This document shows, in pieces, positions 3,733 to 57,528 of a stretch of 64,000 nucleotides of DNA; within the stretch, counting starts at the first letter, position 1; every line of letters starts with the position of its first letter. Source of the DNA: a virus; IMG/VR virus record IMGVR_UViG_3300029121_000001; one strand, 5' to 3'. Under the pieces are notes generated by a model. That model made no database searches. It was given only the letters and a program-made list of their open reading frames with translations, and was not told the DNA's origin. The translations under genes and the position numbers were made by a program.

Positions 3733-3753
3733 TATAGTATTCTCCTTTACATT

Positions 3754-4668: not shown

Positions 4669-4694
4669 AATATAATCTCCTTTTCAAATTTATA

Positions 4695-5620: not shown

Positions 5621-5632
5621 CTTAATATCTCC

Positions 5633-7335: not shown

Positions 7336-7448
7336 AATATAGCCTCCAAAAATTTAGTATGATCAATTTTTATATTGATCATTATTATAATATCTTCTCA
7401 TGGGTGAATTTGGTATATCAAAACTCATATATAAAAGGAGTGAATATT

Positions 7449-7853: not shown

Positions 7854-7859
7854 TATTGA

Positions 7860-8333
7860 ATGGCAGACATTGGATTTGCTGGTTCTGCAGATAAGACAAC
7901 CACTGTTCAAGAATTCATAGCTATTAGAACTACAGATGATGTAACGTATTATAATTATTCTATCGTAGAATATTTGAATGGATTTGATATGTTCATTACA
8001 AATCTTTTATATGACTACGAAGATGAACTACAAAGTGTTACTACTTATATTAAACTTAGTCCTAGAGAAAAAGCAAAATATAAGTATAAGCCTTGGCTAT
8101 TTGCTTATGATGTATATGGATCTACTGAAGCTCAATTTATCGTAATGATGTTAAATGGGATCATTGATCCAAAGGAATTTGATTTCGACAGGGTAAAAGT
8201 TATTAATCCTTCTAATCTATCTACAATATTAAATAGAATTCAAGCAGTCAATGAAGATTATTTGAATAAGAATAGAACTAAATTGAAAAATGATTTTAAA
8301 AATAATAATGGAAATGAAGTCTGGGCAGTATAA
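7860..8333 (+). CDS. hypothetical protein
   Basis: 157-aa ORF, SD GAGGGGTGA. Confidence 0.75.
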   Translation: MADIGFAGSADKTTTVQEFIAIRTTDDVTYYNYSIVEYLNGFDMFITNLLYDYEDELQSVTTYIKLSPREKAKYKYKPWLFAYDVYGSTEAQFIVMMLNGIIDPKEFDFDRVKVINPSNLSTILNRIQAVNEDYLNKNRTKLKNDFKNNNGNEVWAV

Positions 8334-8341
8334 AAAATAAA

Positions 8342-8377
8342 TTTAATGTAGTAGGATTTTGTTCCTACTACATTAAA
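8342..8377. terminator. bidirectional terminator hairpin between convergent genes
   Basis: Perfect 15-bp stem TTTAATGTAGTAGGA/TCCTACTACATTAAA, A/T runs on both sides. Confidence 0.7.
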
Positions 8378-8387
8378 TTTTGTTCAA

Positions 8388-10301
8388 TTATCTCATTGCA
8401 AGAATTCCATCATGAATGACAGATCCATTATCATCAACAAAAACTATAGCAGAGTTATCTCCCATAATTTTTCTATCAAGAAGATGCTGTTCCCATTCAG
8501 ATATTCCTCTATTCATAATAAGAGTAGTCTCTACAGGAGTAGATTCTCTAAATGGAATAGCAGGAACAGAAGGTTTACCAGATACGACAAAAGAATCCTG
8601 ATTCTCATTTCTTGCTAATAGAATATTAGTTACAGGTCTATATGCTACACCTACATCTTCTACTCTCTTACCAGGTTCATTATTAGTCTCACTACCCATA
8701 ACATTTTGTCCAAAAAGATCATCGTCATCAGAATGACTAATCCTCTTAGAAATTCTTGTTCTACTAACTTGATTGTCATCTTTAAGCTGTCTCTTAAATG
8801 AAGGTACTGTAGCATAAAGATCTTCAGTCAATTTAATATTATTCATGGGAAGATAAGGCTGATAGAATAAATCTAGAGTACATTTAGTTCTTGTTTTAAT
8901 ACATTTAAATCCCATGTAATTATTATCATGAGAATCAGATTCCTTATTAATGATAATACCAAGATCACAGTTATCAATCATCAAATAAGACTCTGATACA
9001 TTAAAACTACCAAGAGATCTAATAAGATCTTTTTTATTAGCAGATGAAGAATCATCAAGAACTTTAGATGCATCTCTATTCAAATGAGAATCTGTAATAA
9101 CTGGAATATTGGTTGCATTTGCAAATGCTTTAAATTCATTTACAATTTCACCAAGATCCAATCTAATATCATTTCGTCTATTTACTGGACGAATTCTCTT
9201 AATATGATCTTGAAAGAAGCAAATTGGTTCACGACCTGATTCTCTAAGCTTATCAGTCAATGTATACAGATAATCTGTATTCACAGATAGATTAGGCTTA
9301 TAGATCATTACTAAGTCAATAGGATCTGTATCCTTATCATATCCCAAACCATTTTGTCTGAAGATATTGATAGAATCTTCCAACGAGCAATCGTTTAAAG
9401 TTTTACCACCAGAAACCATGCTCATCATACGAGCAATATTTTCATCTTCAGAGTTTTCCATAGTAAGAAATACAATAGTAGGAATCTTTGTAGGATCATG
9501 TGGAATATAGTCTTTATTATATTTCTTAATTTGCATTGCAAGATCAAGCATGGTAAATGATTTACCACCCGCTGCTTGTGCAAATAGAATATAAACACGA
9601 GTTGCTTGGAATCCACCATCAAGCATCATATTCAATCCAGTAATTCCAGTTCTAAGAATTCTAGAAGGACTATTCTGTCTAGCATGTACATCAGACAGTA
9701 CACTTTCAAACTCATTAGGCATAAGTGTAAACATCTGAGACTGACTAATAGAATCGTCCATTTTATTAAACTGCATATTTAAATCTGCAGTCATTTGTTG
9801 AATCCGATTAACTACATCAGATCTTCTAGTATAATTAGCATTATGAAGATTACTAGCTAAACTTAAAATCTCATCATATCTGTCATCGACAAAATAAGAT
9901 TTTACTAATTCATTTGCTTGTTCATTAAGATAAGCAAGAACTTCATCAGAAATTTCTTCCATAGAAGATGTATCCAGCAAAGATTTATCCATAATACCAC
10001 CATTGATATATTGGATAATCATATCTTTATTAGTCAGCTTCTTATCAATTCTTGCTTCGAGACCTCTCTTAATGAACTTGATACGATCGATTCTATCAAT
10101 ATCACTTCCATATTGATTTTCATCTACTCTATTGAATAATTCTCTGATCAGATTCAGATTACTAATCCTGATATTCTGATTCATAGAAATTACATATCTA
10201 CAATAGAAGTCGAGAGTCTTTATATCAAATAGAGGTTTGATAGTTTCATCGATTTTATCTTTCACTATGGAACGATTATTAACTTTTCTCACAATATTCA
10301 T
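8388..10301 (-). CDS. DnaB-like replicative DNA helicase
   Basis: RecA-type core: Walker A FAQAAGGKS, FLTMENSEDE, ITDSHLNRD. ATG at 10301 behind SD GAGGAACGGAG (the listed ORF starts at a TTG, 10322). Confidence 0.75.
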   Translation of the reverse strand: MNIVRKVNNRSIVKDKIDETIKPLFDIKTLDFYCRYVISMNQNIRISNLNLIRELFNRVDENQYGSDIDRIDRIKFIKRGLEARIDKKLTNKDMIIQYINGGIMDKSLLDTSSMEEISDEVLAYLNEQANELVKSYFVDDRYDEILSLASNLHNANYTRRSDVVNRIQQMTADLNMQFNKMDDSISQSQMFTLMPNEFESVLSDVHARQNSPSRILRTGITGLNMMLDGGFQATRVYILFAQAAGGKSFTMLDLAMQIKKYNKDYIPHDPTKIPTIVFLTMENSEDENIARMMSMVSGGKTLNDCSLEDSINIFRQNGLGYDKDTDPIDLVMIYKPNLSVNTDYLYTLTDKLRESGREPICFFQDHIKRIRPVNRRNDIRLDLGEIVNEFKAFANATNIPVITDSHLNRDASKVLDDSSSANKKDLIRSLGSFNVSESYLMIDNCDLGIIINKESDSHDNNYMGFKCIKTRTKCTLDLFYQPYLPMNNIKLTEDLYATVPSFKRQLKDDNQVSRTRISKRISHSDDDDLFGQNVMGSETNNEPGKRVEDVGVAYRPVTNILLARNENQDSFVVSGKPSVPAIPFRESTPVETTLIMNRGISEWEQHLLDRKIMGDNSAIVFVDDNGSVIHDGILAMR

Positions 10302-10384
10302 AGCGCATTCTCCGTTCCTCAATTATGGTTAATAATGTGTGAGATTATTAATCAAAACTGAAGAAATTATAATCTATCGAATTC

Positions 10385-13459: not shown

Positions 13460-14206
13460 TTACTTTTTTAATTTACGTTTTGCTTCTTCTCTAAGAGTAT
13501 AAAAAATAGCATTGAGTAATAATGCAGTAATACTTCCTAGAGCAATAGGAATAATAAACTTAAGAAACCAATTAGTCCAAGTTATATTACTGATTCTATC
13601 AACAGGTAGCTGTGATGCTTCAATCAATGCCAGATTTGCTTGAGCATATATACACAAAGGATATATTGCAATTCTAGCAAGATCATCAATGACATTGAAG
13701 ATGTGTAAAATAGATATAAAAATAGCAGAAACTATTGTGAGTATCTTAAATTTTGTCTTTGATTCTGTAAAAAGACAGATTGCTACAATTCCTGTACAAG
13801 TATACAGAGTAGTGCCCATAATTAGTCTAAATAGACTAATATCAGTTGTAAGAATACCAGTTTTGAGTATTACAGAACCTACCCAGTAATCTTCTTTGTT
13901 AAGAAAACCACTGAAATAATTAATAGCTGGCATAACAATATAGACTATATTAAAGGATGCAATAACATCTAGAGCAGATGTCAGAGGTTTATTGCTAGAA
14001 ATACCTATGATGAGAAAAGCAATGAATGGAACCATCAATAGAATTATTTCACATAACATCATTACTGCTGTTCTGCTTTGACAATTAGCTCTGAAAATAA
14101 TATAATCTTTAGCATAATTATATATCATAGAGATTATATATCCAACAGAAAATAATGCTATACCAGCATAGAAATCATCATATGATCTTTTTGATGTACT
14201 ATTCAT
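13460..14206 (-). CDS. hypothetical multi-pass membrane protein
   Basis: 248-aa ORF with about 6-7 hydrophobic segments, SD AAAGGAG. Confidence 0.75.
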   Translation of the reverse strand: MNSTSKRSYDDFYAGIALFSVGYIISMIYNYAKDYIIFRANCQSRTAVMMLCEIILLMVPFIAFLIIGISSNKPLTSALDVIASFNIVYIVMPAINYFSGFLNKEDYWVGSVILKTGILTTDISLFRLIMGTTLYTCTGIVAICLFTESKTKFKILTIVSAIFISILHIFNVIDDLARIAIYPLCIYAQANLALIEASQLPVDRISNITWTNWFLKFIIPIALGSITALLLNAIFYTLREEAKRKLKK

Positions 14207-14207
14207 T

Positions 14208-14453
14208 TTATAATTCTCCTTTGATTAAATTTCTATTTTGATCTAATAATTTTAGATATTCATCTATATTATCAGATCTTTCATAATTCTTAATTTGCAT
14301 ATATAGATTAGCGATAATCAATCTATGATCAAATGAATGATTAATAAAATTTTTATCATTCATAATACTTTCTACTTCATTAGAAGCTTTATGCCAATCA
14401 ATAGTAAAAGCTTCAGTGTATTTAGGATTCCATTTCTTTTTAAAAGGTTTCAT
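14208..14453 (-). CDS. hypothetical protein
   Basis: 81-aa ORF, SD AAGGAGGTG. Confidence 0.7.
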   Translation of the reverse strand: MKPFKKKWNPKYTEAFTIDWHKASNEVESIMNDKNFINHSFDHRLIIANLYMQIKNYERSDNIDEYLKLLDQNRNLIKGEL

Positions 14454-14544
14454 AATTTATCACCTCCTTTATATTTTTAAAAAATAATAAAAAAGAATCA
14501 GATATTATTATCTTGAGATAATAATATAATATCTCCTTAGACTT

Positions 14545-15099
14545 TTAATATCTTTTAGCAAACTCAGTTGCTTTTTCTTCTTCTGTTAATTTATTCTCAT
14601 ATAAGAAATCTCTTAGTGTATCAATAAGAATTTCTTTACATTTATTCTCTGCTCTTCTTTGAGAAGATTGTACAGTATCTGCAGATGAAAGTTGAATTAT
14701 ATTTCTTCCAGTATTAATATCAAATATGGTGAAAGAAATATTAGTAGCAATGATTTCTATAATGATATTCGTATTTCTTTTTTCATCATAGAAATAAATA
14801 GGATAAAAATTCTTAGGATTATAATTATCAGGATCATAACTAGGAATTGTTATATTCACCATATAATCTTTAAGATCTTTATAAAAAACAAAAAACATTC
14901 TTTCAAGATCATAAAGATATTGAATATCCCATACGTCCTTATATACAATATCAGAAATAGCAGTGTTTAATTGTTCTTCCAATTCCTTTGCTTTCTTTTT
15001 TGATCTAAATCTAAACCATCCAAGAGGTTTTTCTAATTCTCTCTTTAATTCATGTAACGTATTACATGATTGAATAAGATTAATTAAATAAAAATTCAT
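14545..15099 (-). CDS. hypothetical protein
   Basis: ATG at 15099 behind SD GGAAGGAG (the listed ORF starts at a TTG, 15117). Confidence 0.7.
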   Translation of the reverse strand: MNFYLINLIQSCNTLHELKRELEKPLGWFRFRSKKKAKELEEQLNTAISDIVYKDVWDIQYLYDLERMFFVFYKDLKDYMVNITIPSYDPDNYNPKNFYPIYFYDEKRNTNIIIEIIATNISFTIFDINTGRNIIQLSSADTVQSSQRRAENKCKEILIDTLRDFLYENKLTEEEKATEFAKRY

Positions 15100-15162
15100 A
15101 TGTTCTACTCCTTCCAAAATTGATATGATTATTAAAAGAGTTTTTTACATAATGAAAATATA

Positions 15163-15190
15163 TTGAGGTATTACTGTAGTAATACCTCAA
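15163..15190 (-). terminator. terminator-like hairpin
   Basis: Perfect 12-bp stem TTGAGGTATTAC/GTAATACCTCAA, just downstream of the 15195 stop. Confidence 0.55.
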
Positions 15191-15194
15191 ATTT

Positions 15195-15956
15195 TTATTT
15201 TTTAATAATTTCTTGATATTGTATCATAGTATACATTCTCATTTTAAATGCTGTTAATAGAACCATAAAAGTTTGTTCACAATCATTGATATAATCTTTA
15301 TCTCTTTCATTTGATAGATTAAATTCTTGAGTTTCATAGCAATGATTATTTTTATCTACTCTAAGAACCATTGCTTTATTAATATCAATTCCTCTTTCAT
15401 TTTTCAAAAGATATCTATAAGCAGCTAATTGTAATGAATATTTATAATTCATATGATTAGAAGTTTTAAAGTCAATTAGCCAATATTGATTATCTACTTT
15501 AAGAAGACAATCACATGTACCTCCAAAATATTCATTAATCATAGTTTCTTCTAGATATATTACATCTATTTTCTTATATTCAGTATGTATAAATTCCCAC
15601 CATTGAATAAATCCATCTAAACATGATTCTACAGAATCTCTAATTTTCTGATTAGGAATTTGTAAATCAATATCTAAATCTACATTTCCTTTTCTTAAAA
15701 ATTTCTCTATTGCTAAATGAGAATAAGTTCCTTTATCTTGAGCATCTTTCATAAATGCCTTATAAGATATTCTTTTCCATCCTAATCCATTAGCCCAATT
15801 CATTAGACTATCTTCATGTAGCATAGATGATAGAATCTCTGTAACTCTAGGAACTCTTTTATCATCAATTTCATAATTACTTTTAGTATTATTTCTAATT
15901 TCTATATCTTTAATTTTTTCTAATATTTCTCTTATTTGATCATTAGTAAAAATCAT
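15195..15956 (-). CDS. PD-(D/E)XK nuclease (RecB/Cas4-like exonuclease fold)
   Basis: GGTCDCLL...YWLIDFKTS...QLAAYRYL matches the D...(D/E)xK...QxxxY pattern. SD AGAGAGGA. Confidence 0.65.
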   Translation of the reverse strand: MIFTNDQIREILEKIKDIEIRNNTKSNYEIDDKRVPRVTEILSSMLHEDSLMNWANGLGWKRISYKAFMKDAQDKGTYSHLAIEKFLRKGNVDLDIDLQIPNQKIRDSVESCLDGFIQWWEFIHTEYKKIDVIYLEETMINEYFGGTCDCLLKVDNQYWLIDFKTSNHMNYKYSLQLAAYRYLLKNERGIDINKAMVLRVDKNNHCYETQEFNLSNERDKDYINDCEQTFMVLLTAFKMRMYTMIQYQEIIKK

Positions 15957-16049
15957 TTAAATAAATTCCTCTCTTGAATTAATTATTTTTTACTTATCAG
16001 TTTTTCAAATTTTAAAAGGCGAAACCTTTTAAATTCCCCCATTGCATAA

Positions 16050-21217: not shown

Positions 21218-22384
21218 TTAGTTATTAAGTTCTTCATATCTATCATCTATAGCACCAAACAGAGCATCATTATCGGTGTCCTGTTCTCGTCTATCTCCAC
21301 CAAAGTTCTTATAAAGTAGCGTATAGTAGATACGAATAATTCTCATAGAATCTTGATCCTTCGGGAAATTGATATAATCATCAATAAGCTTATTAAGTTT
21401 ATTAAGCTCAGCGACAAGTTCTTTCTTAATCTTAGGATCAAGTCCTTCTTTAGCAATTTCTCGTTTTAGATAATCTACAGAAGTCTTAATACGAGCAAGA
21501 TCTCCAGGATGTTCATCTTGAACATTAAGTACATAATTTAGAAAATCATTAAAATATAAGAGATATGCTTCAGTATATTCAATGAAAGGAGGATATTGCT
21601 GTACTCCATAATATTCTCCATAGAGTTTATTAGTCATCTTCATAAGGCATCTATGAAGTTCTTCTGCATATCCGAACATCGCAGCAAATGTATCAGCAAA
21701 CTTTTCATTCGTATAATCATATCTAGATCTACGCATATTATCCTTCATAGATTCACTAAAGAATTGAGGCATTAGATCATGAAGGTTTTTACGAATACTA
21801 ATAATAGCAGAACTAAACTTACTTAGCTCTTGAGATACACTATAAGTACTAACCTTTTCTTTAGACTTAATTTTACTCATAATCATTTCATTGATTTTAG
21901 CTACAAGCAGATTAAGTCTACGAGCAGATGTATACTTACTATCTTTATTAGTAACAGCATCAAAGAAGCTATGACCAATTTCATGAAGCATAACAGCAAT
22001 CAATTCTTCATCTGTATAAAGATCATCGTCAATTAAGCCACTATTAATAGCCATAATAAAGCTAACACCAGGAAATACTTTCTTATACTTAAATCCAGTA
22101 GCATCTGCAGTAATAGAATTAAAAATTCTTTTCTTTTCATCTTCAGTATAATAAGTATCTACAGGCCAAGCATACGCATTAGGAAGATGACTAGGTTGAA
22201 TATAAAGAGCAAATGATTTGAAACCAAAAGTAACTTCTGCAATTCTATTAAATTTTAGAATTTCAGTATCTAGATTTGTATTACTAGTAACAGGTTTCAT
22301 TTTAATTTTCTTTCTTAGTTTGGTAAATTGATCCTGAAGTGTTTTGATAGAATCTTTACCAAAATATACTTCATTAAATATCAT
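21218..22384 (-). CDS. putative zinc metallopeptidase (HExxH)
   Basis: AVMLHEIGHSFFD in a 388-aa ORF. SD GAGGTGAG. Confidence 0.6.
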   Translation of the reverse strand: MIFNEVYFGKDSIKTLQDQFTKLRKKIKMKPVTSNTNLDTEILKFNRIAEVTFGFKSFALYIQPSHLPNAYAWPVDTYYTEDEKKRIFNSITADATGFKYKKVFPGVSFIMAINSGLIDDDLYTDEELIAVMLHEIGHSFFDAVTNKDSKYTSARRLNLLVAKINEMIMSKIKSKEKVSTYSVSQELSKFSSAIISIRKNLHDLMPQFFSESMKDNMRRSRYDYTNEKFADTFAAMFGYAEELHRCLMKMTNKLYGEYYGVQQYPPFIEYTEAYLLYFNDFLNYVLNVQDEHPGDLARIKTSVDYLKREIAKEGLDPKIKKELVAELNKLNKLIDDYINFPKDQDSMRIIRIYYTLLYKNFGGDRREQDTDNDALFGAIDDRYEELNN

Positions 22385-30175: not shown

Positions 30176-30182
30176 TTAAAAG

Positions 30183-30220
30183 TCCCGGTAGGAGAAAATC
30201 CTACCGGGATTTATTTTTTT
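30183..30220 (+). terminator. rho-independent terminator (between convergent genes)
   Basis: TCCCGGTAGGA-gaaaa-TCCTACCGGGA followed by TTTATTTTTTT. Confidence 0.85.
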
Positions 30221-33200
30221 ACAGTTGACTATCGTCGTAAGGAATTCCTGCTATATCTTTAATAGATCTATCGAGTTCTACCATAAGTTTAGAAGTTGCT
30301 GCAAATAGAGGAATAGAACATGTCATACGTCCAGAGATAGAACTTAGAGACATGAAACTGTCAATATGCTCATTGGGTCTGAAAGATGTATAAGGTTCTT
30401 GATCCTTAGGAATAATCTTTTTAATAATACCCTTATTTGCAGAATAGAACGTAATCTTATCACCGGCAGACATAGTATCTTTATGCTTAATATAATAAAC
30501 AACAAGAACTGCGTCATCGATATTTTTAGTTTTACCAACTTCAGGAACTTTACCAGTTTTAGGCAGAATAGCAGAATCGATATTGTATTTGTCGTATACC
30601 TTCTTAGTGGCTTTGACTTTCTTTTCATAAGTACCAACAAACTTACGAAGAGATTCAGACATTTCATCTTCACTACAAGTGCGATAAATCTGAATATCAC
30701 AGACAATTCCGGTATACTTAGATTTAACAGGGTTACGACCTAGTTCAGAAATTTCACCAGCATCCATTGCTAGGTTCTTAAGAAGAGTATTCATCGCTTC
30801 GTCATCAAAGTCAGCTTGATAAGTAAATAGAGTATCACCCTCAATAACATGATCACCGATCATTTTATAGACAGCAATATTAGATCCTTTTTCAAGCTTA
30901 GTTTCAATGCCTTGAATAACATCAGTACCCATCTTATTAGCAAAAGATTCTGTAATCATAGCAGAGTCTTCAAATCCTTCATCTGTATTAATAATAGCAA
31001 CTTTTGCAAGTGTGCCCATATTAGCAGCAAGATTACCAGATTCACCAAGAGATTTAGAGAAAGATAGTTTATCATATGCAATAACTTGACCAGCCTTAAA
31101 AGATTTACCTTCTGCAAGATCTGTATCAAGTTTCATAGGTACATAATAACCACCATCAGAGTTTTTCTTAACCTCTTCGCAGAGGTCAATATACTCATGC
31201 TTGCCACTCTTATATTCGACAACCATGTAATTTTTCTTACCAAATCCCTCTTGAACAAGTTCTACAATTTTACCATCTTCTTTTGCTTTATAAGCAAAGA
31301 TGTCAGAGGTAAGATAAGGTAGAGCTTCATCTGCACCAGTAGTAATAAGCGTAGGATCATTATTGTCACAACGAATCATATGCTTAGAAGTCTGGACATA
31401 TGTCATTAGAGATCTAGGAGGATCATCATGGGTTGTTCCAAGAGGAGTAACAGCTTCAGTGATAGTAAAGGAAGAAGCAGAAGACAATTTATCAGTATTG
31501 CCATCAATTGTTTTAACAAATCCTCTACCACCTTCAATATTAGCATTAACAGTTGCCTGACGATTAATACCAACGTTACCAGAGAATCCAGTATCCATAC
31601 CAAGGACATTTAGCATGGAATCGTCATACCCACGTGTAGCAATAGTATAACCACGAGCAACATTCATACCAACTAGACCTTTGTTAGTAACAGAGTTTGC
31701 ACACTCGACGTCATTAAGAGCATTATTAACAGAAAGGTCAGAAGTAGCAGGATCTTTAGAAACAATTAGATCAATAACAGCAGATTGTTTAATTGTCATC
31801 TTAGTTCTCTTACGAGTATGACGATTCTGGTTAGCATAATCTTGATAAGAAGTAGTAAGAGCTTTGTAGAAATAGCCAGCAATAAGCTCTTTACGACGCC
31901 ATCTACGACCTCCTTGATCAATATGACGTACATACTTATTATCTGCAAGCATATTACTTGCATGAATTAGTACACCAACGTAATCACTAGGAAGTTTAAA
32001 ACGTTCAAGAATTTCCTTAGTAATAGGATCAATCATACAGTCATAAGAGTTTTCTAGACCATCAGCATTAAGACTATTGGTATAATTTTCAAGAAATTCA
32101 AGGTACATTCTTCTATTATTTACATCCTTAATCGAATAAGAAGATGTATCATTTTCCTTGATACCATTCATAAGCATAGTAGAAGAATAGTTGACATCAT
32201 ATACAAGATATCCATCAGAAAATTCAATATAATCTTTATCCATATTATATTTCAAATCTTTATCCATATCTTGTACAAATTCATATTTGATTCCTGCTTT
32301 ATTCATAGTTTTTACTAGACCTTCTAGGTAAGCACAAACAATGACAACAGGAATTTCACAATTCAGAATACTTGCTTTAGAATAAGTACAACGAGTTCCA
32401 GTAATCTTAGTACTGTTATAGAAGTCCATATAATCTTTAGATCTATAGAATAGAATCTCAGTAATATATGCTGCTAATGTAGATCTAGTTCCATCATAAT
32501 AGATGATAGTATCTTTGCCACTCTTAGATTTTTCATCAAAGATAGTAAAGACACCAATAGGAACACCCTTAGTATCATCAACTTCATATTCACTTCTAAG
32601 CTCATCTTGGTTAAAGAATATTTTCAAACCAGTGGCTTCAATAGAGTTAAATACTTGTGCAAGATCGATATAGTCTATAGGCAATTCATACTTGGTACAA
32701 ACTTTAGTATTATCGCCAGCGACAAATGTGATATCATTATGCTTATCACAATATTTACCTAGTGTTCTAATAAGCTTATTTGTATAAGGATTAGATTGTC
32801 CCTTACGAGAACCGAATCGTCTAACAAATATCTTATTATAACCACCGGAGCCAATGATCTGACATTCTCCAAGTCCAGTCTTAATTATAGGAAGTAGCGC
32901 AGACTGAATCATCAGAGTCTTTTCATTACCACGAAGCTTTAAGAAATTAGATCCATTGATAAACTTAGGAATATCAATTTTAAGTGTAAATTTAGTTTTC
33001 TTATAATCTACACAACTAATAGTCCATAGATCCAAGACATCTTCAGAAGAAGAATTATCTTTGACATCAATATTGTCAACTGCAACAGGATAAGTCCAGT
33101 GTTGCATAGAATCTAGCATCTTGATGATATCACTATCAGGATCATAATCCTTATCAAAGTTCATAAAGGTCATATGCTCCCAATCATCATTAATAGAAGC

Positions 33201-36200
33201 AACCTTTAGTTTAGTTTCAGGAAGTTCCTTTTCTGCTATATCAACAGTTAGGAGTTCTTTAACAGATTTACCGTCAACTTCCTTTTTATGGAATTCTTCT
33301 TGTTTAGCAACAACAGTAGAAGACTGAGTCTTATCAACTCTAATATTCTCTTCAGTATCTTGTTGCACAGCAACGATCATTTCCTTAAATTCTTCTGTAT
33401 TAAGTTTATCAGTTGCAGTATCCTCACTATCAGAAGTTTCAGCTGCTTTTACAACAGCATCGACAATAGCATCTTTCTTTTCTTTATCAGAAGTACTATT
33501 GGCAGATTTGGTGCCAGATACACCAGTATCTTCCTTGTTATCTTCTTTGGTAACTTCCTTTTCTTTTACTTCAACTTTAGCTACAGTCTTCTTTGTAGAC
33601 TTAGCATAATTAGTTTGAGTAACATTAGAAGCAACCTTAGAAGGATCCGCAACTACTTTCTTTTTTACAGCAACATTTACAGATCCAGGAACTCCATCCT
33701 TATAGATATTAGCACTTGTAGAAAGTTTTTCAATCTTAGAAACGTCATTGATTTGAACATTCTGAGATTGTTCAACTTTATCAATTATAGACAATGCAAT
33801 ACCCTTAGGAGAATCTTCAAGTTCACCTTCAGGATCAGGATCTGCGGGAGAATTATATCCAAGATTAATGATTCTCTTAGTAAGTTGAAGAAACTTAGTT
33901 ACATTAGCAGACTTAGTGAAATCATCTTTTGCAAAATTAATCTTGAAATAATTCTTAGCACCGAGAAAAACAATATCCTTATCACCAAAGATCTTCTTAA
34001 GAGTTCTGACATCATTCTTCATATAATAATAGATGACAGAGATAGGATTGATATCCTGCTTATACATCCACATTTTCTGAGATTCATTATGATGCCAATC
34101 AAGAACAGGAATAAAGACAGTTTTCTTAGAATAGTTACTCAAAGAATCATCGTTGAGTAAACGTTCCATCAATTCAATATATGTCTTAAACAGACGCATG
34201 ACATTATTTCTATCATCGTCATTAATTTGAGACATATTTCTAAAGAAAGATTCATTATAGAAAGATAGATCATAGAAGAGATTACGATTATTATATCTAG
34301 AAAGTTTTACAAATGTATATCTGATAAAAGGCATATCTGCTTTTATCTTTTTATACATATTCAAGACATCTTTATCGTTTCTCATTCTGTCTTTATATAA
34401 TGCTTTACGAAGTTGAGCATCATACTTAGCAGAATCTTCAAACAGATAAACTATTCCACCTTCATTGATATAATCTTTCTGAGACCACTGATCTAATGTA
34501 TTACCAGTAAAAGACTCAGCAGTAGTTTCAGGTTCTGCATCTGGAGCAGTTTCAGGAATACCAATTTTTTGTAGAGATAAAGCTTCTCCCTTATCAGAAT
34601 CATTGGTACCACGTTCAAGATCTCTTCTAAGTTTATTGAGTTTATATATTGTCTTACTTTTAAAACGTCTTTTAAGTCTATCTCCCATAGTACTTATCCT
34701 TTTAAGACTATCAGGAGTAGGATCTGGAATAGGAATATCTTCCTCATTTAAATTACTAATGTAATCAACTTCTTCTCTAATAGCTTTCATGAAATCATTA
34801 CGACTATTAAAGAAGTCATTCATTCCATATTGCTTACCATATTCTTTTGCATATTCATAGATAGCAACAGTATCATTGTAAGCAAGAATTCTAGTAAACT
34901 GATCAATTCCATCGGTATCGATAATATACTGAAATACACGTTCTAGATTAAACTGATCATCTCTATCTCTCTTAGCGATTTCTCCATCGGCAATACCAGA
35001 TAGAAGAATAGCTGCAGGTTCAGCTAGAGTATGCATGACTCTATTATATTTACTACCAACAGGAGTTTTAATAGTATAAATAGCATAGAGTTGAAAGATA
35101 TAAGCAATATAATCTTTATAATCGAATTGAGCACCAGTTCTATAGAAAGCGCCAGGCGTATAAACTAAAAGAGATGTTTCAGTAAAAGATTCAGGTGCCT
35201 GATGATCACTACAACAAATGACATTGATTTTGTCATTAGGCATTCTCTTATTCAATCTTCTGAAACATTCTTTTACATATTTTTGATTAACAAACTTTTG
35301 AACCAGTTGAATATCTCTTTCATAGCCTGTAAATGTAATAAGAGTAAATTCCTTATTCATTTTACGATTTGCTGTAGGGAGAGCAGTTTGACTCATGAAA
35401 TTAGATACTCTAAATTCATTAAAATATTCTTCCTCAGTAAATTCTCTTAGAGTCTTTTTAGACCCTCTTACAAATATAGTATCAAAATCATCTTTATGAA
35501 TACTATATCCAGGCCCCAGAACTGCTTTTACTTCATCACAGATAGCATCAATTTGTTCTTTAGGATATTTACCAAGGCATAGATCATCTGTACCATCAAT
35601 AAATTTCTTAGATCCAAAAGGTCCATTTGCAGTAATTTTGCATGTATGAAATTTATTCTTAATAGTATCAGTAATTGCGTTAACTAGCATTTCACGATAC
35701 TTATAAGGATCCATATCTTGTTCATGAACAGCTTTAGAAGCAAGGCCAGATTTTTCCCAATATGGCTTAAATCTATTGCCATCGCCTACATGAACTTGAT
35801 CAGCCATATCATACTCTTTAATCTTCTTAATGATATTCTTTGCAAGTTCAGCCTCATATTCTTTTTCTACATGATTAAAGAATCTAATAGCAGCAAGAAC
35901 ATGTGCTTCATCATTAAGAGGATATCTACGCTGTTTAGGTAAACCAAATTCACTATCATCTAGCTGTTTTCTCTCAGAAGAAGTCAATTCAACTTCAAAT
36001 AGATATTGGCCAGGATCACCAATATCAATAACAGATTCATTTTGCTGCTTAATATATCTTGTAATACTTTTCTCTACATAATACGATTCAAAGGTTCTTC
36101 TATTAATAACATAAGGTTCAGTCATTGCAAGCATAGAAGACTGATAGTTTGGTGTCAATAGCATAATAGCAGAACCATGACGTTTGTCTTTTAGATTTAT

Positions 36201-36260
36201 AGGAAGAAAGAATTGTTTCTTATAGATCATCAAATCTTTCAGATCATTGAGTACAACCAT
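30219..36260 (-). CDS. giant protein: about 1000-aa N-terminal region of unknown function fused to a multisubunit RNA polymerase beta-like module
   Basis: The C-terminal half carries beta signatures. NALNDVECANSVTNKGLVGMN...GFSGNVGINRQ resembles NPLSE..H.RR.SALGPGGL...PEGPNIGL. THDDPPRSLMTYVQTSKHM resembles EHDDANRALMGANMQRQ. NTDEGFEDSAMITE resembles NGYNFEDSILISE. SD AAGGAGG. Confidence 0.8.
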   Translation of the reverse strand: MVVLNDLKDLMIYKKQFFLPINLKDKRHGSAIMLLTPNYQSSMLAMTEPYVINRRTFESYYVEKSITRYIKQQNESVIDIGDPGQYLFEVELTSSERKQLDDSEFGLPKQRRYPLNDEAHVLAAIRFFNHVEKEYEAELAKNIIKKIKEYDMADQVHVGDGNRFKPYWEKSGLASKAVHEQDMDPYKYREMLVNAITDTIKNKFHTCKITANGPFGSKKFIDGTDDLCLGKYPKEQIDAICDEVKAVLGPGYSIHKDDFDTIFVRGSKKTLREFTEEEYFNEFRVSNFMSQTALPTANRKMNKEFTLITFTGYERDIQLVQKFVNQKYVKECFRRLNKRMPNDKINVICCSDHQAPESFTETSLLVYTPGAFYRTGAQFDYKDYIAYIFQLYAIYTIKTPVGSKYNRVMHTLAEPAAILLSGIADGEIAKRDRDDQFNLERVFQYIIDTDGIDQFTRILAYNDTVAIYEYAKEYGKQYGMNDFFNSRNDFMKAIREEVDYISNLNEEDIPIPDPTPDSLKRISTMGDRLKRRFKSKTIYKLNKLRRDLERGTNDSDKGEALSLQKIGIPETAPDAEPETTAESFTGNTLDQWSQKDYINEGGIVYLFEDSAKYDAQLRKALYKDRMRNDKDVLNMYKKIKADMPFIRYTFVKLSRYNNRNLFYDLSFYNESFFRNMSQINDDDRNNVMRLFKTYIELMERLLNDDSLSNYSKKTVFIPVLDWHHNESQKMWMYKQDINPISVIYYYMKNDVRTLKKIFGDKDIVFLGAKNYFKINFAKDDFTKSANVTKFLQLTKRIINLGYNSPADPDPEGELEDSPKGIALSIIDKVEQSQNVQINDVSKIEKLSTSANIYKDGVPGSVNVAVKKKVVADPSKVASNVTQTNYAKSTKKTVAKVEVKEKEVTKEDNKEDTGVSGTKSANSTSDKEKKDAIVDAVVKAAETSDSEDTATDKLNTEEFKEMIVAVQQDTEENIRVDKTQSSTVVAKQEEFHKKEVDGKSVKELLTVDIAEKELPETKLKVASINDDWEHMTFMNFDKDYDPDSDIIKMLDSMQHWTYPVAVDNIDVKDNSSSEDVLDLWTISCVDYKKTKFTLKIDIPKFINGSNFLKLRGNEKTLMIQSALLPIIKTGLGECQIIGSGGYNKIFVRRFGSRKGQSNPYTNKLIRTLGKYCDKHNDITFVAGDNTKVCTKYELPIDYIDLAQVFNSIEATGLKIFFNQDELRSEYEVDDTKGVPIGVFTIFDEKSKSGKDTIIYYDGTRSTLAAYITEILFYRSKDYMDFYNSTKITGTRCTYSKASILNCEIPVVIVCAYLEGLVKTMNKAGIKYEFVQDMDKDLKYNMDKDYIEFSDGYLVYDVNYSSTMLMNGIKENDTSSYSIKDVNNRRMYLEFLENYTNSLNADGLENSYDCMIDPITKEILERFKLPSDYVGVLIHASNMLADNKYVRHIDQGGRRWRRKELIAGYFYKALTTSYQDYANQNRHTRKRTKMTIKQSAVIDLIVSKDPATSDLSVNNALNDVECANSVTNKGLVGMNVARGYTIATRGYDDSMLNVLGMDTGFSGNVGINRQATVNANIEGGRGFVKTIDGNTDKLSSASSFTITEAVTPLGTTHDDPPRSLMTYVQTSKHMIRCDNNDPTLITTGADEALPYLTSDIFAYKAKEDGKIVELVQEGFGKKNYMVVEYKSGKHEYIDLCEEVKKNSDGGYYVPMKLDTDLAEGKSFKAGQVIAYDKLSFSKSLGESGNLAANMGTLAKVAIINTDEGFEDSAMITESFANKMGTDVIQGIETKLEKGSNIAVYKMIGDHVIEGDTLFTYQADFDDEAMNTLLKNLAMDAGEISELGRNPVKSKYTGIVCDIQIYRTCSEDEMSESLRKFVGTYEKKVKATKKVYDKYNIDSAILPKTGKVPEVGKTKNIDDAVLVVYYIKHKDTMSAGDKITFYSANKGIIKKIIPKDQEPYTSFRPNEHIDSFMSLSSISGRMTCSIPLFAATSKLMVELDRSIKDIAGIPYDDSQL

Positions 36261-36377
36261 TTACATTTACCTCCTTGAATATGATTATAGTAGTGTTCAA
36301 CTTGACCATTTTTAAGGATTTTAGAGAATACTTACTTCTGAAACTTTCATATAAAACTATGAAAAGGAGAAATGAGT

Positions 36378-37589
36378 ATGGGAAAAGCATTCATTAGTAC
36401 ATTCACATATGATTGTGAATTAGCATTTAATTCTCAAGATGGTACATCTGAAGATATATTTAAACAGTGCGTAAGATATATTATTGTCAATCATGACTAT
36501 ATGAAAAATATGATGCCACTTATATATGTGAATGTGAATTTGAAACCTTCTCTATATAATAAAATGGTACCTGAGCAAGGTAAGAGTAAAGTATATCTTA
36601 AATTGTATTGTACTAGAAATAAAGGTTCTACGTCATCTACAGCTAAGAAAGTTATATATGGAGAATTCGATTATTATATGGCAGATGATCCTAATTCGTA
36701 TAAGGAATTGGATACTATCAATGAAGATCAGGGTACATCTTATAAGGTTTGTCAATTGGCACTATTTTCTCTTGATCTTCAGAAGAAAAATCAAAAGAGC
36801 TTTGGCGGAGTTATGAAAGGAAAAACTCCTCAAGATTTAGTAAAAGAATCATTAAAAGATATGAATAATCTTGTAATGCAGCCTTTTGATAATAATAGTA
36901 GTCTTGGTACATTTGTTTGCCCTAATTTAAGTTCTGTTGCAAAATTCATCGGGTATTTGAATAATAAAGCATCTTTCTATAAAGGAAATTATATGTTCTA
37001 TATGGACTTCGAGAAAACATATTTACGAAGTTACGATGGATCATATATTGATGCTGGAGATGGAGATCATAAAAATATTGCAATAGATGTTAGAGATCTT
37101 ACTCAGTATAAAGGATTAGCTTCTGGTATTGTAGAAGATCCTGATCAAGATGCGTATATTATTTATGTAAATGGATCTGATTGTACTATTAGTGTAGATA
37201 GAACTTCTAGTTCCATTGTTGGCAACATTAGCTCTGTTAACGTAGAGCAAGGAACAAAACTGCAAGCTGATGTAGTTAATACTTCTAATATTACTAATAT
37301 TAGTGATACTGGTTCTTCTATCATTACTGTTAGTGAAGATAAAAATGCCGCAAGTAATATCAAGACTAAGATTGCTGAAAATGCTAATACTCTTATCTTT
37401 AGTAAAATAGATATGGACAGTAGAATCTTTACTCCAAATAAACAATATACTCTATCCAATTATGAAGATAATCCAAAGTATACTGGCGTATATTATCTGA
37501 TAAAGAAATATGAGATCTATCTACGAAGTGGAGATCATATGAATTGTCAGATGACTAATACATTTAAAAAGACTGCAGATTTTGTATAA
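36378..37589 (+). CDS. hypothetical protein (possible virion protein)
   Basis: The ATG at 36378 has better SD spacing (AAAGGAG) than the one at 36372. Confidence 0.75.
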   Translation: MGKAFISTFTYDCELAFNSQDGTSEDIFKQCVRYIIVNHDYMKNMMPLIYVNVNLKPSLYNKMVPEQGKSKVYLKLYCTRNKGSTSSTAKKVIYGEFDYYMADDPNSYKELDTINEDQGTSYKVCQLALFSLDLQKKNQKSFGGVMKGKTPQDLVKESLKDMNNLVMQPFDNNSSLGTFVCPNLSSVAKFIGYLNNKASFYKGNYMFYMDFEKTYLRSYDGSYIDAGDGDHKNIAIDVRDLTQYKGLASGIVEDPDQDAYIIYVNGSDCTISVDRTSSSIVGNISSVNVEQGTKLQADVVNTSNITNISDTGSSIITVSEDKNAASNIKTKIAENANTLIFSKIDMDSRIFTPNKQYTLSNYEDNPKYTGVYYLIKKYEIYLRSGDHMNCQMTNTFKKTADFV

Positions 37590-37606: not shown

Positions 37607-38329
37607 ATGGAAGAATTTAATACTGATTTTACTTGGGAAAAGATGAAACTTCATCTGAAGACTATTCTTACTCATAAGAAATATGTATATATTTATTGTA
37701 ATAGATGTGGAATGCCTTGGGTAGGATTGATGCATGATATGTCAAAATTCTCTCCTGCTGAATTTATTACTAATGTAAAATATACTACAAAAGGTGTATC
37801 TCCTATTATCAAGAAAAAACAAATTTGTGGTTATTCTGAACCTTGGATGCATCATAAAGCGCATAATCCACATCATTATGAATATTGGACTGATGATCTT
37901 GATGAAGGAGGATTTTGTGTAAGAATTCCATTTAGATATACCATTGAAATGATGTGCGATTATCTCGGTGCAAATATGGCATATAATAATGGAGATAGTT
38001 CTTATCAAGCAGAATTCAATTGGTGGAAAGAAGCTCGTAATAAAAGAAACATGCATCCTGATAATGTAGAATTTCTGGATCGTGTATTTGGATATCTTGC
38101 TGCTGTAGAACGTGGAAACAGATTCACCATAAATGAATCCGTTTCTGTTCAAAAGAATAATCATTTGCAAATTAGAATTCTTCAAAAGAAAATTGCTTCT
38201 GACAACGATGTATTTAATATTGCTTTTCTAGAGTATTTATACAAATACATTGTAGATAAGAATAATAATCCTATTAAGATGAGATTTAAACTTCCTAAAG
38301 GAACTGAACCTGTATATTATAATAATTAA
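37607..38329 (+). CDS. hypothetical His-rich protein (HDMSKF...HHKAHNPHHYEYW; possibly an HD-like metal-binding fold)
   Basis: 240-aa ORF, SD GAAGGA. The motif was recognised from memory only. Confidence 0.7.
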   Translation: MEEFNTDFTWEKMKLHLKTILTHKKYVYIYCNRCGMPWVGLMHDMSKFSPAEFITNVKYTTKGVSPIIKKKQICGYSEPWMHHKAHNPHHYEYWTDDLDEGGFCVRIPFRYTIEMMCDYLGANMAYNNGDSSYQAEFNWWKEARNKRNMHPDNVEFLDRVFGYLAAVERGNRFTINESVSVQKNNHLQIRILQKKIASDNDVFNIAFLEYLYKYIVDKNNNPIKMRFKLPKGTEPVYYNN

Positions 38330-38334
38330 AAATT

Positions 38335-38364
38335 TACCCGAATAGGATAAAAGTCCTATTCGGG
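38335..38364 (+). terminator. rho-independent terminator
   Basis: ACCCGAATAGGA-6 nt-TCCTATTCGGGT. Confidence 0.7.
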
Positions 38365-38420
38365 TATTATTCCTCAACTTTTTAGTAATTAGTCTATTAA
38401 TAATAGGAGGATTTTTTGCA

Positions 38421-39284
38421 ATGAGCAAGATTGGATATATTCTAAATGAATCCAGTGTTTGCATGGAAAATGTAGACATTAGAGAAGATAAAAATGATCG
38501 CACTAGAGTTACTGGAATGGGAATTCTTCAAACCGGTAATGAAAAGAATCGTAATGGGCGTATATATCGTACTGCTGATCTAGCAAAGGAAATTGCCGCT
38601 CCTAGGCAACAAGAACTGCTTGCTGCTAAGCAAATGTGTGGTGAAGCTGGACATCCTATTGGAGCAGATGCTAGTTCTCTGGTTCGTCAGCAGACTATTG
38701 ATCCGACCAAGATTTGTGTCCGTTATCTGAAGCTATGGATGGAAGGTGATAATGTTATGGGCACCTTCCAAGGTACTAATAATGCTCTCGGTGAAGCATT
38801 CGATAAGGATCTTCGTCAAGGTGTTCTACCTGCATTTTCTCTTCGTGCACTTGGTACCATTTCTAGTACTCCTCAAGGTGCAGTTGTTGAGAATCTGAAG
38901 ATGATTACATATGACTATGTTATTTATCCTTCTCATCCTCATGCATACACTAAGGGAGTCATTAATGAGTCTGCTGGTATTGCTAGTGCAGTCAAGTCTA
39001 ATTTCACTATGAATAGTTCTATGGATGGAACTAGATCTTTCATTAAGGAATTTAGCAATAAGGATGTAGTTAATGCAATTACTTCTATGAGAGAATCTGC
39101 AGTTGATTATATTAAAGATAAGAGTCATAATTTTAAGCTTCTCCAAGAGTGCTATGATATGACTAATTATGATACCATTGATATTATTAGTCCTCATAAG
39201 ATTGCTCTAACAGAAGCTGGTAAGAATACTATCATTATGAATGTTGAAGATTATATTGCAAATGAAATTCAGAATTATGTATAA
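38421..39284 (+). CDS. prohead core protease, T4 gp21-like
   Basis: NRNGRIY..LAKEI...CGEAGHP...W.EGDNVMG...DLRQGVLPAFSLRALG aligns with T4 gp21 NRNKRLYP..LEKAV...LGELNHP...WWKGNDVYG...NIRAGWIPGVSSRGLG. SD AGGAGGA. Confidence 0.8.
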   Translation: MSKIGYILNESSVCMENVDIREDKNDRTRVTGMGILQTGNEKNRNGRIYRTADLAKEIAAPRQQELLAAKQMCGEAGHPIGADASSLVRQQTIDPTKICVRYLKLWMEGDNVMGTFQGTNNALGEAFDKDLRQGVLPAFSLRALGTISSTPQGAVVENLKMITYDYVIYPSHPHAYTKGVINESAGIASAVKSNFTMNSSMDGTRSFIKEFSNKDVVNAITSMRESAVDYIKDKSHNFKLLQECYDMTNYDTIDIISPHKIALTEAGKNTIIMNVEDYIANEIQNYV

Positions 39285-49811: not shown

Positions 49812-49887
49812 TGGAGCTGGTAATAGGACTTGAACCTACAACCTGCTGATTACAAATCAGCTGCTCTGCCAATTGAGCTATACCAGC
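49812..49887 (-). tRNA. tRNA-Thr (anticodon UGU), CCA encoded
   Basis: Manual cloverleaf: acceptor GCTGGTA/TACCAGC, D stem GCTC/GAGC, anticodon stem GCTGA/TCAGC with loop TTTGTAA, T arm GTAGG-TTCAAGT-CCTAT. Confidence 0.9.
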
Positions 49888-49895
49888 ATATTAAG

Positions 49896-49966
49896 TTGCG
49901 CCAGCAGGAGTCGAACCTACGATGGGGGAGTCAAAGTCCCCTGCCTTACCGCTTGGCGATGGCGCA
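49896..49966 (-). tRNA. tRNA-Gln (anticodon UUG)
   Basis: Acceptor TGCGCCA/TGGCGCA, anticodon stem GGGGA/TCCCC with loop CTTTGAC, T arm GTAGG-TTCGACT-CCTGC. Confidence 0.85.
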
Positions 49967-50120
49967 TTAAATCTAGCGAAGTCACGGCACCCGCTTACAA
50001 GACCTACTGCTTCAGTAGCGACTACCGAAGAGCTGGGAATAATAGGCGAAACAGAAAGGAATGCAGTACATCTCTGGTAAGATGCGAAGCGAAAGCAACA
50101 AGTTTGATGAAACGTAGTCG
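49967..50120 (-). ncRNA. candidate small structured RNA between tRNA genes (not a canonical tRNA)
   Basis: 154-nt spacer, relatively GC-rich. Long-range pairing CGACTAC(50120-50114)/GTAGTCG. Local hairpins CATCT-6-AGATG and CTACT-5-AGTAG. No credible ORF. Confidence 0.35.
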
Positions 50121-50196
50121 TGGAGCAGCTGACGAGTCTCGAACTCGCAACAACCTGCTTGGAAGGCAGGTGCTCTACCAATTGAACTACAGCTGC
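50121..50196 (-). tRNA. tRNA-Gly (anticodon UCC), CCA encoded
   Basis: Acceptor GCAGCTG/CAGCTGC, anticodon stem CCTGC/GCAGG with loop CTTCCAA, T arm GCGAG-TTCGAGA-CTCGT. Confidence 0.9.
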
Positions 50197-56292: not shown

Positions 56293-57528
56293 ATGGCTAG
56301 TAACAAAAGAGAATCTAAAATAATCAAAGATCCTACTCTTAAGCAAGAGCTTCTCAATATCAAAGAAAAAGAAATCACATCTTCTTTTATTTTTGGTCTA
56401 TTTGGAAATTATAATGGACGTGCTAAATGCCATCCTTATGATATTCTAGAAGTACCTCCTGGATATTATGGTCCTGAAGGCAATAAAAATAAAAATAGTT
56501 TTATCACAACTGTAGGAATTTGGATATTCAACAAGTGGTTTATTGAAAGTGAACTATTTGATCTATTTGGATATATCAATAAGACTATCAATGGTGATCA
56601 ACTAGAAGATATGAATCAAGATCTTTCATATGCACTTATGGAAGATCGTATTTCTGTTCAAACTCTTAAGAATTATCTAATGAAAACTCAGTTTACAATG
56701 CAGTTTGTTACGGTGCTTGCACCTAATTACACAGAAGAATTGTTGACTTGTAGTGTTCAAATAGATAAGAAAAAGAATGAGCTTATTAAGCAGCATAAAA
56801 AAGAGCTTGAAGCTGGAGATACTGTTGTTGCAAAACAGATTGAGGATGAGCTTATTGCTTATGCAAAGGAACTTTTGAAAGATGATCCTGCAATGGATTC
56901 TTTCGTTTCTGGAGCAAGATCTAATATCAATAATAACTTCAAGAATATGTTTATCTGGAAAGGTGCTACTAGAGATCCTAACCCTGATTCTAAGCAAGAG
57001 TTTCGTATTGCTACTTCTAATTATATGGAAGGAATTAAAAGAGAAGAATACTCTCTATATTCTAATTCTGGTATTGAAGGTGCATACTCTCGTGGTAAGA
57101 AAACTGAGGGTGGCGGATATCTAGAGAACCTTACTACTATGGCATATCAAGACTTAGTACTTGATGAAGATGGAACAGATTGTCATACTGATAGACATAT
57201 CGAAGTTGAACTGACTCCTAAGAATGTGAATCAGTATATGTATAACAATATTATAGGAAGTAATGGTAAGCTAATTGAACTTAATTCTCAAAACCGTGAT
57301 AAGTTCATTGGTAAGAAAGTTAAGATGCGTATGGCTTATCTATGTCCTCATGAAAAACCCTGTAATGCATGTGCTGGTAACTTCTATAAGAAACTTGGAA
57401 TTAAGAATGTTGGACTTACTCTTATGCAGGTTTTCTCTATCTATAAGAATAAGTCTATGAAGGCATTCCATGACTCTACAGTTCAATTAACAGAAATCGA
57501 TACTATGAAAGCATTTGGATATAAGTAA
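56293..57528 (+). CDS. multisubunit RNA polymerase beta-prime-like fragment (central part: SGARG region, bridge helix, first trigger-loop helix)
   Basis: [11 protein letters not shown] resembles [58 protein letters not shown] resembles [67 protein letters not shown] resembles [21 protein letters not shown]. The C-terminal KSMKAFHDS resembles LTMRTFHIGG. Confidence 0.8.
   Translation: [411 protein letters not shown]

Follow-up and report, generated by a model that had tools for sequence, protein, structure and literature searches.

An uncultivated jumbo phage encodes a 2013-residue predicted virion RNA polymerase N-beta subunit with an unusually large accessory insert

What are the first ~1000 residues of a phage protein whose remainder resembles the beta subunit of RNA polymerase (RNAP)? 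The question is raised by a gene for a 2013-residue protein on the minus strand of IMG/VR virus record IMGVR_UViG_3300029121_000001, of which a stretch of 64,000 nucleotides (the window) was analysed. A first-pass annotation made from the letters alone had described the protein as about 1000 residues of unknown sequence fused to a complete beta-like module. That description holds in large part, but its interpretation has to be amended. The comparisons presented here show that the gene is an ordinary virion RNAP (vRNAP) subunit with an unusually large accessory insert. Its product is most likely, judging by its homologies, the N-terminal beta polypeptide (N-beta) of a polymerase packed into the phage head. 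A probability of roughly 0.6 is assigned to the full reading, in which the protein is this N-beta, two conserved modules of its non-beta region (A and D) act as a packaging/ejection frame, and the stretch inserted between them is passenger cargo. The source phage is uncultivated, has a genome of about 258 kb and is a distant relative of the AR9/PBS1, S6 and phiR1-37 group. The gene and its parts are listed below (AF2, AlphaFold2; pLDDT, the predicted local distance difference test score).

30219..36260, minus strand: whole gene, predicted virion RNA polymerase N-beta subunit (open reading frame, identical copies, orthologue P0038)
36036..36260, minus strand: module A, residues 1-75, conserved N-terminal module (BLAST in relatives; AF2 pLDDT 92-98)
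35736..35993, minus strand: module B, residues 90-175, DUF6582 (Pfam PF20223, phrog_16160)
35436..35708, minus strand: module C1, residues 185-275, small alpha/beta domain (AF2 pLDDT ~90; closest clade only)
34746..35348, minus strand: module C2, residues 305-505, alpha/beta plus helical domain (HMMER; hhalign to domain X)
34434..34745, minus strand: long helix followed by a disordered acidic linker, residues 506-609 (AF2)
33711..34433, minus strand: module D, residues 610-850, conserved N-terminal domain of vRNAP N-beta (relatives, hhalign, Foldseek; pLDDT mostly 95-98)
33234..33710, minus strand: linker L, residues 851-1009 (composition; family alignment and consensus)
30222..33233, minus strand: beta-homologous module, residues 1010-2013 (PHROG 3148/14872, PDB profile matches, AF2 and Foldseek)

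From its lobes the beta module continues into the Rif/fork region and an HDD..R..M block, and then reaches a GDK..NKG motif. The motif blocks quoted in the first-pass annotation are all present and in the order given there, NALNDVE..KGLVGMN..GFSGNVGINRQ being followed by THDDPPRSLMTYVQTSKHM and then by NTDEGFEDSAMITESF. The PHROG profiles for 'RNA polymerase beta subunit' (phrog 3148 and 14872) match residues 832-2003 (E 7.6e-135) and 890-2003 (E 3.7e-119), far beyond what chance would give. When 50,697 phage records were searched by tblastn, every one of the 310 matching records was a jumbo phage, with the best matches in Listeria LPJP1, Staphylococcus S6/DC4/PALS2, Yersinia phiR1-37, Fusobacterium JD-Fnp and Bacillus AR9/PBS1; identity to cultured phages was 25-30% and was confined to the segment from residue ~950-1060 through 2003. 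The module is a phiKZ/AR9-type multisubunit RNAP beta homologue, as had been proposed, and its closest cultured counterparts are the vRNAP beta proteins of S6/DC4, LPJP1, phiR1-37 and AR9/PBS1. A PDB search with the single sequence gave weak matches to the GDK..NKG region and nothing more. A seven-sequence family profile was needed; it matched bacterial beta chains with E-values down to 2e-19 (E. coli beta residues 650-823) and also residues 17-416 of the 665-residue C-beta belonging to phage AR9's non-virion RNAP (nvRNAP). Within the module, GDKITFYSANKG aligns with GDKVAGRHGNKG of plastid beta.

The module is not the complete beta that was first supposed. The alignment over the GDKxxxxHGNKG region stops at residue 1966 of 2013, leaving 47 residues to the C-terminus, whereas in the plastid chains aligned with it ~220 more residues of beta follow that region; measured against AR9 nvRNAP, the module corresponds to N-beta plus residues 17-416 of the 665 of C-beta. 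As the last ~200-250 residues of beta are absent, which is what a vRNAP with a separate C-beta would lead one to expect, the remainder must be encoded elsewhere, and by these alignments the protein is N-beta and not whole beta. A C-beta gene was not present among the window open reading frames (ORFs) scanned, the rest of the 258-kb genome not having been searched for one. At the other end of the module, a structure-based check was run on predicted models of separate parts (residues 1-860 and 960-1660). The AF2 model of residues 960-1660 (70-sequence alignment; pLDDT 82.6; predicted template-modelling score 0.84) matched the N-beta chain of AR9 nvRNAP, 7s00_c, in Foldseek (E 2.2e-10; template-modelling score 0.61 on the target) and bacterial beta as well; there were 208 PDB matches at E<=0.001, and the 50 listed were all beta-subunit chains. 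In this model the beta lobes (protrusion and lobe) lie within residues ~1010-1660, and the first ~1000 residues are therefore not a divergent beta N-terminus, a possibility that the first-pass annotation had itself raised.

The vRNAP of jumbo phages is made of five polypeptides, two for beta (N-beta, C-beta) plus three for beta' (N-, Mid- and C-beta') (PMC7598289), and the beta subunits of vRNAP and nvRNAP are split at different positions (PMC7598289). The split point of the present protein, after GDK..NKG, matches that of virion homologues, unlike the AR9 non-virion split. In SPN3US the 159-kDa N-beta gp241 is a head ejection protein and is accompanied by a separate 25-kDa C-beta, gp218 (PMC5694885); the 1417-residue UFVDC4_00067 of phage DC4 was found packaged in virions (PMC10638138), and the record of phiR1-37 g099 carries the note 'phage structural protein'. 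The gene for vRNAP beta is linked to a protease gene in SPN3US, phiKZ and 201phi2-1 (PMC5694885), and the same linkage is seen here, with a prohead protease gene lying three genes from N-beta on the divergent strand:

38421..39284, plus strand: prohead (head maturation) protease (Pfam Peptidase_S77/S80; phrog_207, E 3.7e-28)

Several features by which an N-beta is recognised were found, namely beta homology, lobes in the same polypeptide, a non-beta N-terminal domain and linkage to a prohead protease; the end point shortly after GDK..NKG also agrees, and presence in virions is known from the homologues named above. Elsewhere in the window, a 411-residue ORF (56293-57528, plus strand) matches phrog_2962, also labelled 'RNA polymerase beta subunit' (E 1.9e-64), and aligns weakly with the bridge-helix region of beta' (E. 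coli residues 757-818). Its product resembles a Mid-beta' polypeptide; as subunits of this type have been described for virion polymerases only, it is probably a further part of the vRNAP.

A substantial part of the non-beta region turns out to be standard for the family. Cultured vRNAP N-beta proteins include those of S6 (S6_1000) and DC4 (UFVDC4_00067; 1417 residues), LPJP1 (1436), phiR1-37 (g099; 1393) and JD-Fnp4_5 (1484), as well as those of AR9/PBS1, SPN3US (gp241) and phiKZ (gp178). Because similarity to beta in the 1393-1484-residue homologues begins only at their residue ~435-450, a non-beta N-terminal region of ~430-450 residues is, on sequence comparison, normal for this subunit, contrary to the premise that characterised phages possess only smaller, unextended beta polypeptides. 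The cultured proteins are 25-30% identical to the 2013-residue protein over residues ~1000-2003 and end at the same point after GDK..NKG; they share module D, and their extreme N-termini are similar by eye. The protein studied here is, however, ~600 residues longer, and the cultured N-beta proteins gave no BLAST match to residues ~90-600, the stretch with DUF6582, C1 and C2.

The conserved frame of the N-terminal region consists of modules A and D and the linker that follows. In the AF2 model of residues 1-860 (79 sequences; mean pLDDT 80.8) A and D are both confidently folded. By BLAST, module A stands at residue 1 in 102 complete relatives and in a family of proteins that lack beta, described below, whereas module D is found in every complete relative examined and matches residues 79-210 of LPJP1 in hhalign with a probability of 92.7%. 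The best viral Foldseek matches of the model were PBS1 A0A223LD65 (E 7e-6) and phiR1-37 g099 (E 1.6e-3), over ~260 columns each; these columns are presumed to belong to module D, given its length of ~240 residues and the LPJP1 match. In linker L, K, E, D, S and T make up 52% of residues, in agreement with the K/E/T/S/D-rich linker noted earlier before the beta module, and its C-terminal ~110 residues, which lead straight into the beta module, are conserved across the family. Against the PDB, the best Foldseek match of the 1-860 model had an E-value of 0.78, so that none of A, B, C1, C2 and D has a structural analogue there. Searches of Pfam and NCBIfam with residues 161-620, residues 600-840 and separate segments detected DUF6582 only, and none of A, B, C and D occurs a second time in the 64-kb window. 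The phrase 'about 1000 residues unknown' accordingly does not apply to ~475 of them (1-75, 610-850 and 851-1009), which are homologous to other N-beta fronts.

Uncultivated relatives place the remaining stretch in context. A search with residues 1010-2013 retrieved 1571 proteins, the best 120 of which (45-77% identical) were analysed; complete relatives among these 120 measured 1406-1750 residues, and gap statistics were taken from the 102 that are complete at both ends. In all 102 the order is module A, a variable gap, module D, a charged linker and the beta module, as in the protein studied here (relatives P0046-P0163; close clade P0038, P0041 and P0049). Beta-module identity is 45-57% to the uncultivated relatives and 62-73% for P0041 and P0038. 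The gap between A and D spans 24-376 residues with a median of 191, apart from two outliers, P0038 (513) and P0041 (792), which are the sole relatives near or above the 525-residue insert considered here. On these alignments the insertion site between A and D is hypervariable (24 to 792 residues), and the supposed N-terminal fusion is instead a ~525-residue insertion between two conserved modules; about 100 uncultivated relatives form a continuum of gap lengths, and this protein stands at its far end. DUF6582 directly follows A in 43 of the 102. Modules C1 and C2 occur nowhere outside the close clade, other relatives having GNAT, NUDIX or HAD in their place. Between A and D, P0041 carries a GNAT domain (residues 215-302) and P0061 a NUDIX domain (222-344), and P0111 has a HAD domain (25-128) at the place where module A was not detected. 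Two proteins of ~950 residues, P0068 and P0090, were considered as natural beta-only split genes and rejected, since P0068 starts only 33 nucleotides inside a 4.6-kb contig, which makes it a contig-end truncation of the subunit (locus L012, 33-2873).

The 525-residue insert itself reads DUF6582, C1, C2 and a disordered spacer. The Pfam PF20223 match covers residues 98-153 with E 1.7e-7, its 31.9 bits exceeding the gathering score of 27.3, and phrog_16160 matches as well. Module B holds the FGLPKQRRYPLNDEAHV motif, and the motif reported earlier near residue 100 is indeed there, FGLPKQRRYPLNDEAHVLAAIRFF being located at residues 105-128. C1 occurs in the closest clade only (P0038, and residues 344-419 of P0041). 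An exhaustive HMMER search with residues 161-620 found six proteins among 1.84 billion representatives, all from one small clade, and A, C1, C2 and D had no match in Pfam, NCBIfam or PDB folds. C2 is nevertheless a distant homologue of domain X of the beta-less family (hhalign probability 94.2%, E 1.1e-7). The spacer begins with a helix (residues 518-549), after which AF2 pLDDT falls below 50 at residues 551-597 and 599-609. Compared with P0038, identity is 66% in A, 60% in B, 33% in C, 63% in D, 48% in the linker and 73% in the beta part; as C stands at only 33% against 48-73% elsewhere, the insert is, by this comparison, the fastest-evolving part of the protein. A foreign origin of the insert was considered and rejected, its GC content and its GC content at third codon positions (GC3) being the same as in the rest of the gene.

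A copy of DUF6582 is also carried by Q/N-rich phage proteins of ~900 residues (P0009 at L011 8001-10700; P0010-P0034), some of them on ~280-kb contigs. These copies are 60-78% identical to residues 73-182 of the N-beta (72% in P0009), a similarity equal to or greater than that to the orthologue P0038 (60%), so that unrelated proteins may have exchanged the module by shuffling or kept it alike by concerted evolution. No paper mentioning DUF6582 was found in literature searches.

The A/D pair also exists without a polymerase. Two successive searches, the first with residues 1-835 and the second with P0002, brought up about 24 clusters of proteins, 630-1457 residues long, that lack beta and lie on 130-250-kb phage contigs (P0001-P0008, P0164-P0178). 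Their order is A, domain X, DUF6582, an enzyme-type domain (GNAT, AAA-type kinase, Nudix or DUF362), D and a tail of ~90 residues. They thus share A, DUF6582, a C2-like domain X and D with the 2013-residue protein, but X precedes DUF6582 in them whereas C2 follows it here, and they carry recognisable enzymes, unlike the insert of the present protein. At the two loci examined (L005 10001-13306, P0007; L007 10001-14293, P0006) they are stand-alone genes: a tblastn search for a beta module within 10 kb was negative, and the gene that comes next lies on the opposite strand. On both counts, the idea that they are 5' exons of intron-split N-beta genes, as known from AR9/PBS1, was rejected. The phages concerned are related to the source phage, sharing neighbouring genes at 35-42% identity.

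The reality of so long an ORF has to be weighed along with its interpretation. The gene is a single uninterrupted ORF of 2013 codons plus a stop, as the earlier annotation stated and the ORF listing and translation bear out, and its ends carry the following signals:

36270..36276, minus strand: Shine-Dalgarno sequence AAGGAGG, 9 nucleotides before the ATG at 36260 (read from the sequence)
30180..30212, no strand assigned: bidirectional hairpin terminator directly 3' of the stop codon (scan: 14 paired bases, then a T-run)

An assembly chimera, or a read-through joining two genes, would have only the unusual length in its favour, the cultured homologues being 1393-1484 residues long. That explanation, which the first-pass annotation had put forward as a danger to its own claim, is rejected because the identical 2013-residue protein is found on at least seven contigs, which come from two or more different metagenome samples, and because of its collinear relatives: P0038 (2015 residues) is 59% identical over its whole length, and P0041 (2296 residues) has the same module order. 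The two contigs listed, a 258-kb JGI contig and a 161-kb ENA scaffold, come from different samples, and the JGI contig is 100% identical to the window where compared. One ribosome-binding site, one terminator, no internal stop codon and GC and GC3 that are uniform across the modules of the gene point the same way, and an artefact is scarcely credible. Megablast of the gene DNA against the 50,697 phage records gave no match.

As to function, A and D together would form a frame that takes the protein, and the pre-assembled vRNAP with it, into the prohead and/or out through the tail, while the stretch between them would be a tolerant loop in which passenger domains accumulate; the passengers would be either co-delivered with the polymerase or cut free by the prohead protease encoded nearby. 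The retention of A, D and cargo where beta has been lost supports this frame. The SPN3US vRNAP must assemble before packaging (PMC5694885), and in 201phi2-1 the prohead protease removes the N-terminal 275 residues of the vRNAP beta subunit as a propeptide (PMC5694885). Two precedents taken up below, the N4 virion polymerase (PMC5512222) and the HD-domain fusion of AR9/PBS1 (PMC7598289), also speak for the proposal. Several points weigh against the proposal. No enzyme or effector domain is recognised in the protein's own insert by Pfam or NCBIfam, so that the notion of effector cargo draws on the relatives; as no catalytic signature is recognisable, the passengers of this protein are more likely binding or regulatory modules than enzymes. 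The role of A and D in packaging or ejection is a proposal for modules that have no PDB analogue, and they could equally be RNAP-specific elements by which the beta-less proteins dock onto the polymerase. The SPN3US N-beta is unprocessed (PMC5694885), and no conserved [LI]-x-E or [SAG]-x-E protease site was found at the border of linker and beta in a 118-sequence alignment; an [LI]-P-E sequence precedes the beta module in the close clade (the 2013-residue protein, P0038 and P0041), most relatives having [LI]-P-K or another sequence.

The main rival, conceivable though unlikely, is that the N-terminal region (A, D and insert) is a working part of the polymerase; it could serve as an assembly platform, recognise promoters or confer specificity for the template, and early transcription would be tuned by the inserted domains. 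No homologue of alpha, omega or sigma is present in jumbo-phage RNAPs, and how these enzymes assemble and initiate has not been established (PMC7598289); a 'unique N-terminal region' was noted in the phage beta protein by Iyer et al. (PMC7824862); A and D are strongly conserved and predicted with confidence to be folded; and the conserved last ~110 residues of the linker run on into the beta module. Yet the A/D pair also occurs in beta-less proteins with GNAT, kinase and Nudix domains, 201phi2-1 dispenses with its first 275 residues during head maturation, and a site that tolerates 24 to 792 residues of unrelated sequence would be unusual in a functional core element. The trimming in 201phi2-1 can be turned to another use, namely to suggest that the first ~1000 residues are an assembly-only propeptide that guides the polymerase into the prohead, serves as scaffold or internal mass and falls victim to the prohead protease afterwards, in which case none of them would reach the host. 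The protease gene three genes away and two long disordered charged linkers (residues 551-609 and 851-~975), which by the model would be accessible to it, fit such a role. The failure to find a conserved cleavage motif argues otherwise, as do the unprocessed SPN3US N-beta and the probably unprocessed phiKZ gp178 (PMC5694885), the 60-66% identity of A, B and D to their P0038 counterparts, as if these were folded domains subject to constraint, and the folded enzymes (GNAT, Nudix) of relatives, which make little sense if destined for degradation; this explanation appears improbable. Of the delivery frame proposed above, a broader version is possible but doubtful: A/D may be a general cargo-delivery frame in many uncultivated jumbo phages, the inserts being carried into the capsid and injected at the start of infection, either tethered to the virion RNAP, as here, or riding on a beta-less copy. 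Known inserts include GNAT, Nudix, a kinase, DUF362, DUF6582 and the C1/C2 of this protein, and in that case DUF6582 and C1/C2 would be a new class of early host-takeover or anti-defence modules acting next to the transcribing polymerase.

Among known systems, the virion RNAP of phage N4, gp50, is likewise a head-packaged and ejected polymerase with non-polymerase regions for injection (N-terminal ~998 residues) and encapsidation (PMC5512222), and N4-like vRNAP relatives carry passenger effector domains (PMC5512222). However, gp50 is a single-subunit T7-like polymerase with a fold unrelated to the two-barrel beta/beta' enzymes, whereas the catalytic module of the present protein is a two-barrel beta, and A, B, C and D show no sequence or structural similarity to gp50; the 2013-residue protein is, on these comparisons, not an N4-type polymerase and resembles one in function alone. 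For an accessory fusion, a precedent is the HD domain fused to vRNAP C-beta in AR9/PBS1 (PMC7598289, PMC7824862), but that domain is a fixed HD phosphohydrolase on C-beta, whereas the insert described here is on N-beta at a hypervariable site. The label 'polyvalent protein' of Iyer et al. (2017) is partly justified, as the protein is multi-domain and probably delivered, but a recognised effector domain was not found in it; the 2017 paper makes no mention of jumbo or phiKZ-type phages.

Other genes of the window may be noted briefly. Directly upstream of the prohead protease gene is a gene for a DUF5662 protein (37607-38329, plus strand; Pfam E 5.3e-32), and the two (37607-39284) are transcribed divergently from N-beta. 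Between the DUF5662 gene and N-beta lies a 405-residue ORF (36372-37589) for which PHROG, Pfam and PDB searches were all empty; it was rejected as the counterpart of the RNAP-annotated 408-residue neighbour in S6/DC4, to which it shows no similarity (E 2.4). The gene block downstream of N-beta includes a 388-residue protein (21218-22384, minus strand) with a Peptidase_M48 match above the Pfam cut-off (E 2.7e-6). A replication block (186-10322, minus strand) comprises topoisomerase II large subunit at 186-1763 and two helicases, one Dda-like (5633-6841) and the other DnaB-like (8388-10322). Three tRNA genes are clustered at 49812-50196 (minus strand; Thr-TGT, Gln-TTG, Gly-TCC), and GC content falls to 23.7% at 14001-16000, against ~30-35% elsewhere in the window. 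In another 405-residue ORF (61080-62297, minus strand) the match to large-terminase profiles is limited to their C-terminal half (positions 282-535 of the 807 in phrog_2), and by analogy with the intron- and endonuclease-invaded genes of AR9-like phages this terminase gene may be split or interrupted.

Literature searches found no paper on the variable insertion site, the fusions of DUF6582, GNAT or Nudix to N-beta or the beta-less A/D family, the nearest mention being the 'unique N-terminal region' of PMC7824862. For vRNAP with fused GNAT or Nudix domains they returned the two surveys by Iyer et al. only, neither of which describes the A-insert-D architecture, and the broader pattern of cargo accretion in uncultivated jumbo phages is apparently undescribed as well. 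As of a 2020 review, no virion RNAP of a jumbo phage had been purified (PMC7598289), and how a five-subunit vRNAP is packaged, passes the tail and reassembles is an open question (PMC5694885). For this family, the non-beta front of N-beta has a fixed frame (A and D) and, between its two parts, a site that takes 24 to ~800 unrelated residues, and the frame also occurs without beta. For annotation, this means that such giant ORFs are less mysterious than they look, about half of their 'unknown' part being family standard. Modules A and D provide defined units for studying the packaging and ejection of the polymerase, and the gap between them is a candidate for a natural site at which foreign cargo could be loaded into the heads of jumbo phages. 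DUF6582, C1 and C2/X are unstudied domains that probably act in the first moments of infection, and the significance of the finding would be greater if the delivery-frame model were true.

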